DNA of 63,997 nucleotides, filler included, from Candidatus Woesearchaeota archaeon (lineage in GTDB: Archaea > Nanobdellota > Nanobdellia > Woesearchaeales > CG1-02-33-12), in the NCBI GenBank assembly GCA_018399355.1. It is 3 parts of 3 records of this genome, joined end to end, with 100 filler letters (N's around TTAATTAATTAA, not from the genome) between each part and the next. Parts side by side here need not be neighbours in the genome. Positions count along the whole stretch, not along the records: positions 26,297 to 48,735 come from JAGYOA010000011.1; 2 more parts are not named here. One strand, 5' to 3'. Made by a program: the position numbers. Of the stretch, positions 30,001 through 36,000 are shown one piece after another. Every line of letters starts with the position of its first letter. Position 1 is the stretch's first letter.

Positions 30001-33000
30001 TTTATCACATATATTTTATGTAAAAAACTGCGGTGTTTTTATGCTCTCTTTATTTTTTGTTTATTTTTATCTTAGTGATTTATGATTATTTATAACTATT
30101 TCTATTTATTCACATGGGTTATGGAATAAAGAAAATTCATTACTCGTGATGATTTCCTAATTAAAATAAGTGTACTTATTTGCTGAAAAAGATATTTTTT
30201 ATTATATTTTTTATAAAATATATTTTTAAATAGATACATTTATATACTTGAACCCCTTACTGAATAATAGCTGGTTGAAACCAGTAAAAATGTTACGGAG
30301 GTGACGGAGATGACAGATATATTTGATAAGAATGCAGAAACAAGCAGAGTAAGAGGAATTAGATTTTATACAGACGACATTTACAATTATAGGGACTGGA
30401 ACCTATAACATGATTGGTATTATGGGTATTTTTAAACCATAATTCATTGAAACTGGTTTAATTGTTGGTATATAAAACAATTGATTGAAGGTATGCCTTT
30501 CAAGCAACCTACAACTTATTAACCCCAACAATTATTCCTTTTAATTCTTTTTTAAACATTTAAATGTTCCAATGTATTGTCGAAAACAAAACAGAAGATA
30601 AAAATCAGGGTAAATGCTTAGTTTTTGAGAAGAGAATATAAGTTTAATAAAACGCCGGGACTGGGACTTTCAAAGCGCTTGCAACTTTGGCTTTAATCTG
30701 ATGCTCACATTTTTGCGAGCTTCAGCGAGCTCGTCCAACTTTATGTTGGACCTGCGTGCCAGCTTAGCAAGAAGCTGTTTGAACCCAGATATCCTTTCGG
30801 AAACTGGCTCTCAAGGCCAGCGCAATACCGAGTTATGCGATCCCGGCGTAAAACAGAGAACAAGACATTAATTTAAAAAACTTTTGATAAATTCTGGTAT
30901 TTTGTTTTTTAAGACTTTCGAAATCATTTAAAAGAAATTTTTATTTTAATGAATAGAAATCTTTTTAAGTTTTTTGCATAAATCGAAAGGTTTATATATG
31001 ATGACCCAGATTTATTTAAAAATATTGGTATTATAATTCAATTTTAACTTTAAAGTGTTGAAGATTGGGGGTGTTTTTTATGCCAAGCTATATAAAAAAA
31101 TGTCCTGAGTGTGGTAGCATAAACCTGTTTTGGAATAAAGACAGGGGAGAAATAATTTGCCGTGACTGCGGTCTTGTTATAGAAGACAAGATGGTTGACT
31201 TCACGCAGGAATGGCACGATTTTGACAGCGAGACCGGAGAAAAAAGAAGAAGGTCCGGGGCTCCTATGACTTACACTCAGTATGACCAGGGTTTAGGAAC
31301 TGATATTGGAAGAAAAGCTGACTTAAGCGGCTTGGGAGCCAAGGATAGAAATAAGTTTTTCAGATTAAGAAAATGGCAGTATCGTATTTCAACTGCTATT
31401 GAAAGGAATTTAAAGCTTGCTCTTGCAGAGTTGAAAAGAGTTGCATCTTACCTCAAGCTTCCAGGAAGTGTTGAAGAAGAAGCTGCAAGGGTTTACACCA
31501 TGGCAGTTCAGAAAGGACTTGTCAGAGGGCGTTCTATGGAATCTGTTGTTGCAGGAGCACTTTATGCTGCATGCAGAAGACATGAAGTTCCCAGGACATT
31601 GGATGAGCTTTCAGAGGCAAGCGGAATAGAGAAAAAAGAAATAGGAAGAACTTACCGCTTTGTGACAAGAGAGCTGGGAATTACAATATTTCCAAGCAAT
31701 CCTGCCGATTACATAGCAAGATTTTCCTCAGCATTAAAACTTTCAGCTGAGACACAGTCAAATTCTATTGAGATACTTGAAAAAGCTCAGAAAGTGGAGC
31801 TTACCTCAGGAAGAGGTCCTACAGGAATCGCAGCAGCTGCATTATATGTTTCAGCATTATTGCACGGAGAGAAAAGGACACAAAGAGAAGTTGCAGATGT
31901 TGCAGGGGTTACAGAAGTTACAATAAGAAACAGATACAAGGAATTGCTTGAAAAGCTTAAGCTTGAGAAAGAAATAAAAAAGCTCAAGAAGAAGAAATCC
32001 TAAAATCTGAATAAAACTTTTTCAAAATTCTTTATTTTTTTGTTTTTTATCTTTATTCCTTCTTTTTCAAGGAGTTTTATCTTTTTTCTTACACCTCCAC
32101 CATATCCTCCAATAAATCCGGTTGAGTTAACAACTCTATGGCAAGGTATTATTATTGGCTTTTTGTTGTTATGCAGCGCTGTTCCAACTGCTCTGTATGC
32201 TTTTGTGTTAAGCTTTTCAGCTATTATCTTGTATGTTGTTATTTTACCCTTTGGTATTTTTTTTGTTAAATGTAAAACCTTTTCGCTGAAATTCATTTTA
32301 ACAAATTTAATATCTTGTTCAGATTTTTCTTGCTCATGTCTTTTTTATAATCAATTGCATAACCTATGACTTCATGTTTCTTTATTTTAATTCCTTTCTT
32401 TCTGAGCAATTGTTCCATTGATGTTGAGGTTATAAACTGGCAGAACTGGGTTACATTTTTCGGTTTTTTTGTTTTCCTGCACCTTTCAAAATCAATCATA
32501 ATTGGCTTTTTGTCAACTATTATGTGTTTTAAGGGGTGGTGCATCTCTTCTTTGTCAAGATTCATCTTATCCATCTTGTAAAGCTGCATGAAGACATCCT
32601 TTAATATTCTGATAATATCCTTTTTTTTGTTTTTTTCAATGAAATCAACTATAAATTCGCCTTTAACAAAATTGTAAACAAAGTAACCTTGCCCTGAAAA
32701 TAATAGCTTGGGCCCAATATTTTTTTCATTAAGCTTTTTTATCCATTTGGTTTCGTTTTCAATTCTTCCTTTTGCCTTGCTTTCAGGCAGCTTTGTCTTT
32801 ACAACAACATCTTTTTTGTTGAGATTTGCCCTGTATAAAAGGCCGCGGTGACCCTTTGCAAATATTTTTATGTTTTTAAGGCCCTTTTTTCTTAAACTCT
32901 CAAGAACCTCAGACCTTTTTATTGAGTAAACAAAAAGAGTTTCAAATGAAATCTTTTCTTGGTCTATTATCTTAAAGTTAAAACCTTTTTCTGTTATTAT

Positions 33001-36000
33001 CTCATCAATCTTTTCCTTGTTTGTAAGTGAGCTGAAAACAATGAGAACCTTTCCATCTTTCTTTAGGTAGTTTTCGGTTTGTGAAAGGAATTCCTCAAGT
33101 GTTTCATGGCCTTTTACTCCCCCATATATTGTTTTGTCTTTTATTCCCTGATCTTTTGGAAGGTAAGGAGGATTAAATACAATCAAATCAAATTTTGGCT
33201 TTTTCAGAAGAAAGTTTCTTATTTTTTTATTCTTTATATTTTTAATTTCCCTTGGTTTATCAAAAAAGCTGAACAAATCGCTCTTGAAGACAAAAATATT
33301 TTTTATGCCTGTGTTTTCAATGTTTTTCTGAGTCTTTTTTAATGATTCATTACTTATATCAACAGCAATAACAAATTCAGCTTTCCTAGATGCAGCTATA
33401 GCCTGTATTCCCGAGCCAGTGCCCATATCAAGAACATTATTTCTGGAATATTTTTTTACGTGCTTTTCAAGCAGCAAAGAATCCTCCATTGGTTCATAAA
33501 CTTCAAACATAGAAATATAAAAAAAGAATTGATTATTAAAACTTTTTGATTAATAAAAATAAAAAAATAAAGAGAATTTATCGTCTTCTCTTTTTAACAG
33601 GCTTCTTTTTTGCTTTTTTCTTTACTGCCTTCTTTTTTACTGCCTTTTTCTTTTTAGCCTTCTTTTTTCTCTTTTTTCCGCCGCGGGCCATCTTTGCCCT
33701 TGAGACATCTCCTCTCTTGTCTATGAAGTAGAGATATCCTGATTGTTTTTTAACACCTACTTTCTGGACTTTTTCTTTTTTCTTTTTTCCTTTCTTTCTT
33801 CCACCGCGGGACATCTCGACTCTTGAGACATCTCCATTCTTGTCTATATAGTAAAGATATCCGTCTTCCTTGCAGATACCTACTTTTGCTACTTTTTCTG
33901 CCATTTTTTTACCTCCTTTTTTGTTTAAAAATACCCTCCAAAACCCAAAGGGATAAATGGATTATTGACGAGGTAGTATTTAAATCTTGCTATTTTTATG
34001 ACGGAGCCTAGACGGAAAAACCAAGAAAAAGGTATACTGATTTAGTTATCTACCTTTTTTTTCAAACAATTCATCTATAGATTGTATGTATTCCTTGACC
34101 CTGGCCAGTATTTCAGGTATAAGGGACTCTTCTATTTTTTTGCAGAATATCTCCTGGATTTTAAAGAATTCGCTTATGCGGTACTGGCTGCTGACTTTCT
34201 CAACAATGAAAAGATTTCTCATCCTTCTGATTTGCCTTCTTATATTGGATGAGGCTATTCCTGATAATGGCAGCTTGTGTTTTTTTCTTGTTTTAATGAC
34301 TTTTTCTTTTATTTCTTCAGAGCTTAAAGTCTTTTTCTGTTTTTTTGCTTCAAGCAGAACATAAAGAACATCAACAACAACATCGCGAGAGTCTCCTGGC
34401 TGCAGCAATCCTATGCTTAGACATAGCTTTCTTACCAACTCCCTTTTTTTAAGGCTTTGGGGCCTTTCATACTTCCTTAAGGTTATCTCTGCAAGTGGAA
34501 TGTCTTTGGATATATTTTTCATGATTAAAAGATTTAAGTTTAAGGTTATATTTATAATTTTTGTTTAAAGAAGTTTATTTTAAGATACATCCGCACTTAA
34601 CGCATATATGAACGCCTTCTTTCTCATTGAAGTTGGTGTTCACTCCATAATCTAAAACAGAGCCGCAATTTGGGCATTTTGGTTCCAAAAACTCCATAGA
34701 GTTGAATAGATTAAGTTCTTCCAAGAGATATCCCACATTATATTCCTGTGTTTTTATGTATTTAAACTTTTCGGATATTCGTAAATTACTTTAAAATTAG
34801 GGATTTGTTTGAATTCCATGGGGTAATAGCAGTCATGGTGTGTAACTTGAGGATTATTCTTGAGAAAGTCCAGTTTGCATATAGAATCTAATTTACCATT
34901 GTAAATAAGCTCGCCTTCCTTAGAAAAATCTTTTTCAAAATTAGATGCAATGACATCTTCAATGTAAATTCCTAATTTTTTTAATTCGTTTTCTTTTGTC
35001 AACAAAGAATATCTTACTCCATCTAAGTCATTATATGTTAATATTGTTACTTCAGCTAATCCTTTTTTTGTTTTTATCTGGCCTTTTTTTAAATAAGATT
35101 CTACTGTTCTGCTTATAATATCCTTTTTTAATGTGACATTACCCATTATCTGTTTTGCTTTTTCATATGGAAAACCTTTCATTACACAGGCCATCATTGA
35201 AAGATAAAAATTTTTTTTGTTTATATTCCTTGCATTGGCACTGAAGTTTTTTATAAAATAAGGTAAATTAAAATGATTATATTTTATTGCTTGTTTTGCT
35301 AATATAAACCCTGTATGCTGCCTTATAAAAGTGCCGTCAAAATCAAAACTAATTTTATTTTCTAAATTCATTTTAATCAACTGAAATATCTGTTTAGATT
35401 GCTTTGGTCAAGGTTCTTTATTAAATCTTCTTTTTCAAATCCCAGGACCTTGAAAATTCCCTCAACAGAGGGTATAACCTGGTTGTTAATATAATATTCA
35501 GGGTCATATTCTTCCTGGCTTACCTCTTCAGGCATTTTTGCTCTATCTCTTATTCTCTCTTTTTCCCTGCCTTTTGTTACAACATACTTTATCACTGAGC
35601 CAGGGCCAACTGGAATATCTTTTTCAATCATTCTCTGAGCAACAGCAACATGAGGGCCGAAAGAGTCATATTCGCTTATATTTTTCTGCAACTGTGTGGC
35701 TATTGTCACCTTTTCAACCGGAATTTCATTTTTCTTCAGGCTTTCAATAACATCTTTCACATAGTCAAAGGCTTTTTTAGGGTCTCCCTGTTTTAATGTT
35801 ATGTCCAACACCTTTTTCTGTGTTTCCTTTGCAACAATAGACAAGTTTCTTCTTATTGTCTCAAATCCTTTTATTATTATACTTCCTTCCTCTGAAAGAA
35901 GCGCGTATTTCTTTTTTGCCCCATAGTCTTTTTCTTTTGCTGAAACAAATATCCCTCTTGGATAAAATCCCTGGTATTCAAGTTCCATAAGGCCCGGAAG

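Follow-up and report, generated by a model that had tools for sequence, protein, structure and literature searches.

The minus-strand gene at 32293–33510 of the window (the whole 63,997-nucleotide stretch of Candidatus Woesearchaeota DNA analysed, filler included) encodes, in a single open frame of 405 aa, an Mtq2/HemK2 methyltransferase followed by a K-type kinase of the ArkI family. Both domains were matched, bearing out the one-frame fusion of the initial annotation. The protein probably represents two independent modifiers of translation factors, a predicted aRF1 methylase and a predicted tRNA U47 kinase, tethered from a tight operon. By extension from orthologues, the methyltransferase would use SAM on aRF1 bound to aEF1A-GTP, and the kinase would use ATP to add a 2′-phosphate to U47 of class I tRNAs with a five-base variable loop, binding the tRNA via its basic C-lobe; the two enzymes likely act independently within one chain. 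Gene order suggests that Mtq2 and the kinase became neighbours in the ancestor of the order, with repeated fusing and splitting since.

The methyltransferase domain (residues 1–199; 32914–33510, minus strand) carries YEPxEDS, GxGxG, NPPY (a sequence motif at residues 113–116; 33163–33174) and GGxxG motifs. Residues 3–199 score above the curated thresholds for NF011529 (164.5 bits against 162) and for TIGR00537 HemK2/MTQ2 (125 against 87), and all 24 Pfam matches lie inside residues 8–179 of the fused protein. Compared with the Mtq2 structures of human and E. cuniculi, the domain gives TM(target) values of 0.75–0.86. Of the fused methyltransferases 84 of 85 have N.PY, as do 44 of the 45 split ones, and the Mtq2 motifs are kept equally in both forms. 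The fusion contributes the sole HemK2 above cut-off in its genome, which also encodes aRF1 with GGQ. Judged from sequence, the N-terminal domain likely methylates the GGQ glutamine of aRF1. The NPPY and other Mtq2 motifs are common to archaeal Mtq2/aPrmC (H. volcanii HVO_2744; van Tran et al. 2018, PMC6144793) and human HEMK2/N6AMT1, and the single copy, the encoded aRF1 GGQ substrate and the frequent proximity of Trm112 in relatives are likewise as for archaeal Mtq2/aPrmC. According to PMC6144793, the NPPY Tyr of H. volcanii Mtq2 is essential, the enzyme requires aRF3/aEF1A and GTP, and Trm112 is dispensable for Mtq2 in vivo. Unlike the H. volcanii and human enzymes, the fusion has a C-terminal kinase and a ~20-residue insertion near 84–104, and no Trm112 was found in its genome. 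Among 61 order genomes searched, Trm112 was found in 21, often near the Mtq2 gene, and not in the other 40.

The order of a SAM methyltransferase followed by a kinase is also that of WbdD, the E. coli O9a methyltransferase-kinase chain terminator, which is the top full-length Foldseek match to the fusion. WbdD acts on O-antigen. A comparable two-step enzyme, whose kinase would first phosphorylate a substrate for the methyltransferase to methylate, either on the new phosphate or on an adjacent nucleotide, appears extremely improbable: the likeness is one of domain order alone (rmsd about 10, TM 0.4, 14% identity), with different families and a different inter-domain geometry, and the genome has no other Mtq2 than this methyltransferase, which is of a kind that keeps its motifs fused or split and often lies near Trm112.

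The kinase domain (residues 200–405; 32293–32913, minus strand) is basic, with 51 K+R vs 23 D+E. Its earlier description as unannotated is slightly overstated, as an 80%-identical relative (P0004) has been named by JGI ‘predicted Ser/Thr protein kinase/methylase of polypeptide subunit release factors’; hundreds of such proteins are named methyltransferases only, an annotation that the present assignment corrects. In a single-sequence search, residues 194–403 matched TkArkI (7vnx, E 9.6e-11) and residues 278–373 matched 8yv4/8yv5 (E 1.8e-10), with no further C-terminal match below 0.001. The earlier claim that these structures alone are matched therefore holds, the E-values shifting slightly with the full protein as query. 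With a 60-sequence profile, 8yv4 (2.4e-24) and 7vnx (2e-14) were followed by a next best match at 4.8e-5. The fold is that of a minimal two-lobe kinase, nearest TkArkI, to which the domain is 27% identical.

TkArkI (TK2051, COG2112/AQ578 family, PDB 7vnx; Ohira et al. 2022, PMC9095486) is the closest known system for this half of the protein. Ten of the 14 residues tested in TkArkI are kept (K219, G220, K238, E253, K328, D340, N352, T354, Y388, K389). Specifically, TkArkI K32, G33, K51 and E65 are matched by K219, G220, K238 and E253, and D149 by D340 in the metal-binding DFE loop (residues 340–342; 32485–32493, minus strand), the ArkI version of DFG. TkArkI K137 is also kept, subdomain IX N160 and T162 correspond to N352 and T354, and the C-terminal YKR to Y388-K389-K390. 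By composition, the last 61 residues hold 17 K+R vs 4 D+E. Differences from TkArkI comprise Tyr for Arg95 and, in the catalytic loop, K320-E321-E322 (32545–32553, minus strand) for H130-G131-Q132, the Q132 to Glu change being shared with Nitrososphaeria and the H130 to Lys change with Geoglobus acetivorans Ark1. In addition, the fusion kinase sits behind Mtq2, no KptA was found in the genomes searched, and the host is probably mesophilic. G. acetivorans Ark1 (PDB 8yv4, and 8yv5 with ATP), compared by PDB titles and aligned sequence, has the same KEE triplet but is a stand-alone protein of ~174 aa with a shorter N-terminus.

Since the kinase is without HRD/HGD and DFG, and the genome without a Bud32 above cut-off, a degenerate Bud32/RIO kinase or a pseudokinase was also considered. 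We find this scarcely credible, given that the catalytic G, K, E and D do not vary among the 85 fusions, that 39 of 41 genomes carry a separate Bud32, which has its own long branch in the tree, and that the BLAST E-value is 0.043 to a Bud32 vs 4e-15 to TkArkI. Neither the HGD loop, nor DFG, nor the family HMM score was found, and a Bud32/RIO identity is largely refuted.

At the TkArkI His130 position, all 144 order loci have lysine; so do 19 of 20 other Nanoarchaeia loci and all 9 from Archaeoglobi. In the tree, the K-type clade comprises Nanoarchaeia and Archaeoglobi (support 100/98) and is sister to an H-type clade (97/75) holding TkArkI. The K-type members define a second ArkI clade. Those lineages with reported Up47 or ArkI activity whose sequences entered the comparison are all H-type; neither it nor the tree extended to the Methanococci (M. 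fervens), Aquifex (A. aeolicus) or Nautilia. The initial annotation called the domain a U47 writer: the ArkI-family kinase with conserved residues stands, but the U47 role rests on orthology, as the domain falls in the sister clade with Lys for His130. The presence of U47-C48 does not discriminate, because it is common in class I tRNAs.

An alternative is that the K-type kinase shares just its fold and ATP chemistry with ArkI and acts elsewhere than tRNA U47 (another RNA position, rRNA, nucleic-acid ends or protein). The separate clade, the invariant His to Lys change and the different gene neighbours argue for this. Against the U47 reading, the TkArkI H130A mutant is severely impaired (PMC9095486), identity to TkArkI is only 27%, and the CCA-adding-enzyme genes that flank H-type kinases are absent beside K-type genes; moreover, the literature searched yielded no activity test for the K-type clade, and KptA occurs in 0/61 genomes. 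Nevertheless, we consider another substrate unlikely. Phosphorylation of tRNA depends on the N-x-T and YK motifs specific to ArkI, and these are largely kept over the 144 order loci (N in 142, T in 123, Y in 134, K in 111), H-type loops are equally variable (HKE, HNE, DYD), and the K-type Geoglobus protein was named RNA kinase Ark1 by its depositors. The same KptA/Tpt1 search was positive in 3 of 14 controls and negative in S. acidocaldarius, where Up47 has been reported. If KptA is indeed missing, the predicted phosphate would stay on the tRNA for good, serving folding and protection against hydrolysis constitutively instead of as a regulated response to heat, and a predicted writer without a detected eraser would call into question whether the reversible writer-eraser picture holds in general.

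The earlier expectation that the kinase is near-universal in the order, and fused or adjacent to the methyltransferase, was upheld on a larger sample. The kinase is present in 149 of 151 order genomes (147 of 149 once the two unpublished ones, G105 and G124, are set aside) and in 23 of 28 genomes of sister orders; predicted tRNA 2′-phosphorylation would then be no speciality of thermophiles but the work of a near-core gene in a large, streamlined archaeal lineage. The contrast drawn previously between a thermostability mark and mesophilic hosts is not new, however: Up47 has already been reported for the mesophiles N. viennensis and M. maripaludis, and ArkI from Nautilia, likewise a mesophile, shows activity in vitro. 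Methyltransferase and kinase are fused or adjacent in 130 of 144 loci (locus L007 from G124 dropped), spanning >120 families. Long frames had formerly been judged from alignment spans; a six-frame HMM search places both domains in one stop-free frame in 85 of the 144.

Could the fusion itself be functional? Both domains might serve aEF1A-GTP cargoes (tRNA, and aRF1 as its mimic) via common docking, or the kinase might stabilise Mtq2 where Trm112 is lost. Consistent with this, and counting against independence, are the linkage in 130 loci, a junction that is 26 residues long in 61 of the 85 fusions (24–26 in 71) and a full-length structure model (pLDDT 91.7, pTM 0.77) in which the junction is ordered; the requirement of Mtq2 for aRF3/aEF1A and GTP (PMC6144793), and the 40 of 61 genomes where Trm112 was not found, point the same way. 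The junction helix (residues 201–208; 32887–32910, minus strand) follows immediately on the final methyltransferase strand and aligns in register with the TkArkI N-terminal helix region, but is missing from most split kinases. Furthermore, fused and split states alternate along the trees, some fused genomes do have Trm112 (e.g. G009, G010, G057), other orders of the class, sister orders included, keep the genes unlinked, and ArkI is reported to act on free tRNA and on precursors. A functional fusion thus seems rather improbable, and a fixed partnership is not borne out, the kinase also fusing to Ogt. The fusion is labile and not exclusive, and looks optional; because of this, and because both enzymes are known and mesophilic ArkI is published, the surprise is limited. 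The Kae1-Bud32 fusion MJ1130 likewise joins an atypical archaeal kinase to a neighbouring translation-related enzyme in some lineages only; there (PMC5007285) the partners share one complex and one modification, whereas Mtq2 and the kinase have two differing predicted substrates.

Immediately downstream, a gene for the C-terminal domain of Ogt (O6-alkylguanine alkyltransferase; 32000–32296, minus strand), with a PCHR motif, overlaps the fusion stop with its start by 4 nt. Ogt is linked in 69 of 144 order loci, with PCHR in 67 of the 69, and is fused to the kinase in 14 of 144. Separately, 26 of 52 HG[EQ]L-type loci, nearly all of them Nitrososphaerota-type, have a downstream gene for an AlkA-like HhH-GPD protein, which is fused to the kinase in a 247-member cluster; TkArkI also binds guanosine and deoxyguanosine (PMC9095486). 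The kinase could accordingly belong to an alkylation-damage module, co-expressed with and sometimes fused to repair enzymes, that protects or repairs nucleic acids. We regard this as very unlikely, as Ogt occurs in 0 of 20 loci of other Nanoarchaeia orders and in none from Archaeoglobi or Thermococci, no AlkA match was found in other-Nanoarchaeia, Archaeoglobi, Thermococci or 15 other Thermoproteota loci, and the pattern was spotted after the fact among related loci that are not independent. A combined reading, which we hold to be doubtful, has one protein docking on aEF1A-GTP complexes to mark both aRF1 and tRNA, the latter with an unerased U47 2′-phosphate by a predicted Lys-type ArkI; the pairing with Ogt or AlkA would then imply that the phosphate protects translation from chemical damage, not heat.

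Among the other neighbours, a 108-aa basic protein (33578–33904) and a 158-aa conserved protein (34046–34522), both on the minus strand and with no confident Pfam family, occur in 7 of 144 loci and flank 56 of 144, usually upstream, respectively. The TFB (TFIIB) gene (31065–32003, plus strand) is convergent with the cluster and present in 57 of 144 loci.

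The initial annotation judged from alignment spans that the 405-aa protein at 32293–33510 (-), an Mtq2/HemK2 methyltransferase joined to an ArkI-family kinase, represents a recurrent fusion in Woesearchaeales, and a per-locus check establishes that the fusion is real, with 85 of 144 loci fused. DNA was fetched for 144 of the 149 kinase-positive genomes (145 loci), leaving out four weak-match genomes and one unpublished genome; the unpublished locus L007 was then dropped to give the 144 loci counted. A separate Mtq2 frame lies upstream on the same strand in 45 loci, touching or overlapping within 60 nt in 30 of these pairs, and a broken fusion accounts for one of the 45. 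Mtq2 was not found in the flank (0 to 2.5 kb) of the other 14, one of which, in genome G145, is a fusion truncated by the contig end. The junction measures 26 residues in 61 of the 85 fusions, and in the full-length predicted structure of the query (pTM 0.77) a junction helix directly follows the last methyltransferase strand, with no disordered linker. Split kinases possess their own Met start, and the helix is absent from most of them. Between fused and split states, 18 to 27 changes are counted on fast trees of 121 loci, at least 4 to 5 of them on well-supported branches. One genome rated 6% contaminated, G070, carries two copies (L112 and L145), one fused and one split.

The conserved gene order is 158-aa protein, Mtq2, kinase, Ogt and a convergent TFB gene. 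The kinase is also fused to Ogt in 14 of the 144 loci (L049, L077, L088, L090, L094, L106, L107, L109, L111, L122, L124, L125, L131 and L144), including four triple Mtq2–kinase–Ogt fusions. This promiscuous partnering favours tight packing as the origin of the fusion; the constant junction length and persistent linkage suggest that fusion may also carry some advantage. The conserved 158-aa protein (34046–34522, -), for which no confident Pfam family was found, is a candidate regulator or partner and is encoded close to the cluster in 56 of the 144 loci. A lysine-rich 108-aa protein with an internally repeated motif and no confident family (33578–33904, -) occurs in 7 loci. Upstream of TFB, ~950 bases are devoid of ORFs longer than 60 aa, and no Trm112 gene occurs at 30701–30871, although one is often there in relatives. 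Positions 26197–26296 and 48736–48835 are N spacers joining the three contigs, such that genes flanking them are not neighbours. The kinase–Ogt link has a parallel in Nitrososphaerota-type sequences (cluster P0371 and loci L166–L245): of 52 such loci, 26 have a gene for an AlkA-like HhH-GPD glycosylase downstream of arkI, directly in 10 and further on in 16, and the glycosylase is fused to arkI in a 247-member cluster.

Of 151 order genomes with a completeness of 80% or more, 149 carry the kinase; two of these are unpublished, and other claims are independent of both. Mtq2 is likewise missing from the three kinase-less order genomes met in this survey and that of the wider class (0/3), and the locus is therefore probably unassembled there. 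An assembly gap probably also accounts for Bud32, which has no match above cut-off in the whole window genome, versus its presence in 39 of 41 order genomes. Elsewhere in the class, 23 of 28 genomes possess the kinase and 27 of 28 encode Mtq2 at another location; none of 20 fetched loci holds both in one frame. In surveys centred on genomes of other lineages, related kinases were recovered from 70/81 genomes for a Nitrososphaeria genome and its phylum, 31/31 for a Thermococcus, 5/51 for an Archaeoglobus and 2/131 for a genome of the cyanobacterial phylum. Amino-acid composition places the window's genome at about 40 °C, a rough estimate.

Judged from its orthologues, the N-terminal domain would most likely methylate aRF1, a predicted activity in which we have high confidence. 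It is the sole HemK2 above cut-off in the genome, which also encodes aRF1 with GGQ, and Mtq2 motifs are equally retained in fused and split forms. In H. volcanii, aRF1 methylation by Mtq2 depends on aRF3 and GTP, and Trm112 is dispensable in vivo (PMC6144793); among 61 order genomes, 21 encode Trm112, 9 of them no more than 5 kb from the kinase match. The C-terminal domain would, by the same reasoning, most likely transfer the ATP γ-phosphate to the 2′-OH of tRNA U47 where the variable loop has five bases, and this predicted kinase activity is probable. Such a loop with U47–C48 occurs in 5 of 15 detected tRNAs. That both predicted activities hold, with the domains acting independently, is on balance the favoured reading. 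No KptA/Tpt1 eraser was detected in the 61 order genomes searched, and the same search matched 3 of 14 control genomes. S. acidocaldarius, a control without a match, nonetheless has Up47 in its tRNA (PMC10159004), and eraser absence is therefore not unique to Woesearchaeales.

Fourteen TkArkI residues were mutated by Ohira et al. (PMC9095486). Aligned against locus L305, whose translation equals the printed 7vnx stretch and which served as numbering reference, the query retains K32, G33, K51, E65, K137, D149, N160, T162, Y200 and K201, and is substituted at R202 (Lys), Q132 (Glu), R95 (Tyr) and H130 (Lys). Glu is the usual state of position 132 outside Thermococci. Position 130 is Lys (K-type) in 144/144 order loci, 19/20 other Nanoarchaeia and 9/9 Archaeoglobi, and His (H-type) in 37/37 rows of Thermococci, Nitrososphaeria and other Thermoproteota. 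From 234 aligned domains, 81 rows of at least 160 aa were selected for a maximum-likelihood tree, in which K-type (100/98) and H-type (97/75) sequences form distinct clades and the four Bud32 rows sit on a long branch. Given a single outgroup family, the two clades come out as sisters and neither is nested in the other. The K and H types appear to replace one another as single-copy genes from lineage to lineage, a pattern consistent with orthology.

Published work covers ArkI, the occurrence of Up47 in mesophiles and archaeal Mtq2, and the JGI automatic name of one relative already gives both functions. No description of the fusion or the K/H split was found in accessible portions of the literature on the ArkI family, phosphouridine, Woesearchaeota tRNA modification and the Geoglobus RNA kinase (including PMC10622864 and PMC5007285); new here are the locus-by-locus verification, the K-type clade, the evidence that the fusion is labile, the links to Ogt and AlkA, and the missing eraser. 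Among individual K-type kinases, the short 173-aa L165, from a 0.5-Mb genome (G176), groups with Archaeoglobi (99–100 support, long branch), possibly through transfer or a long-branch effect. Three others (L167, L209 and L255) come from records titled Methanosarcinales; L167 and L209 have the complete fused cluster and fall among Woesearchaeales proteins on the tree, so these records are probably mislabelled or misbinned.
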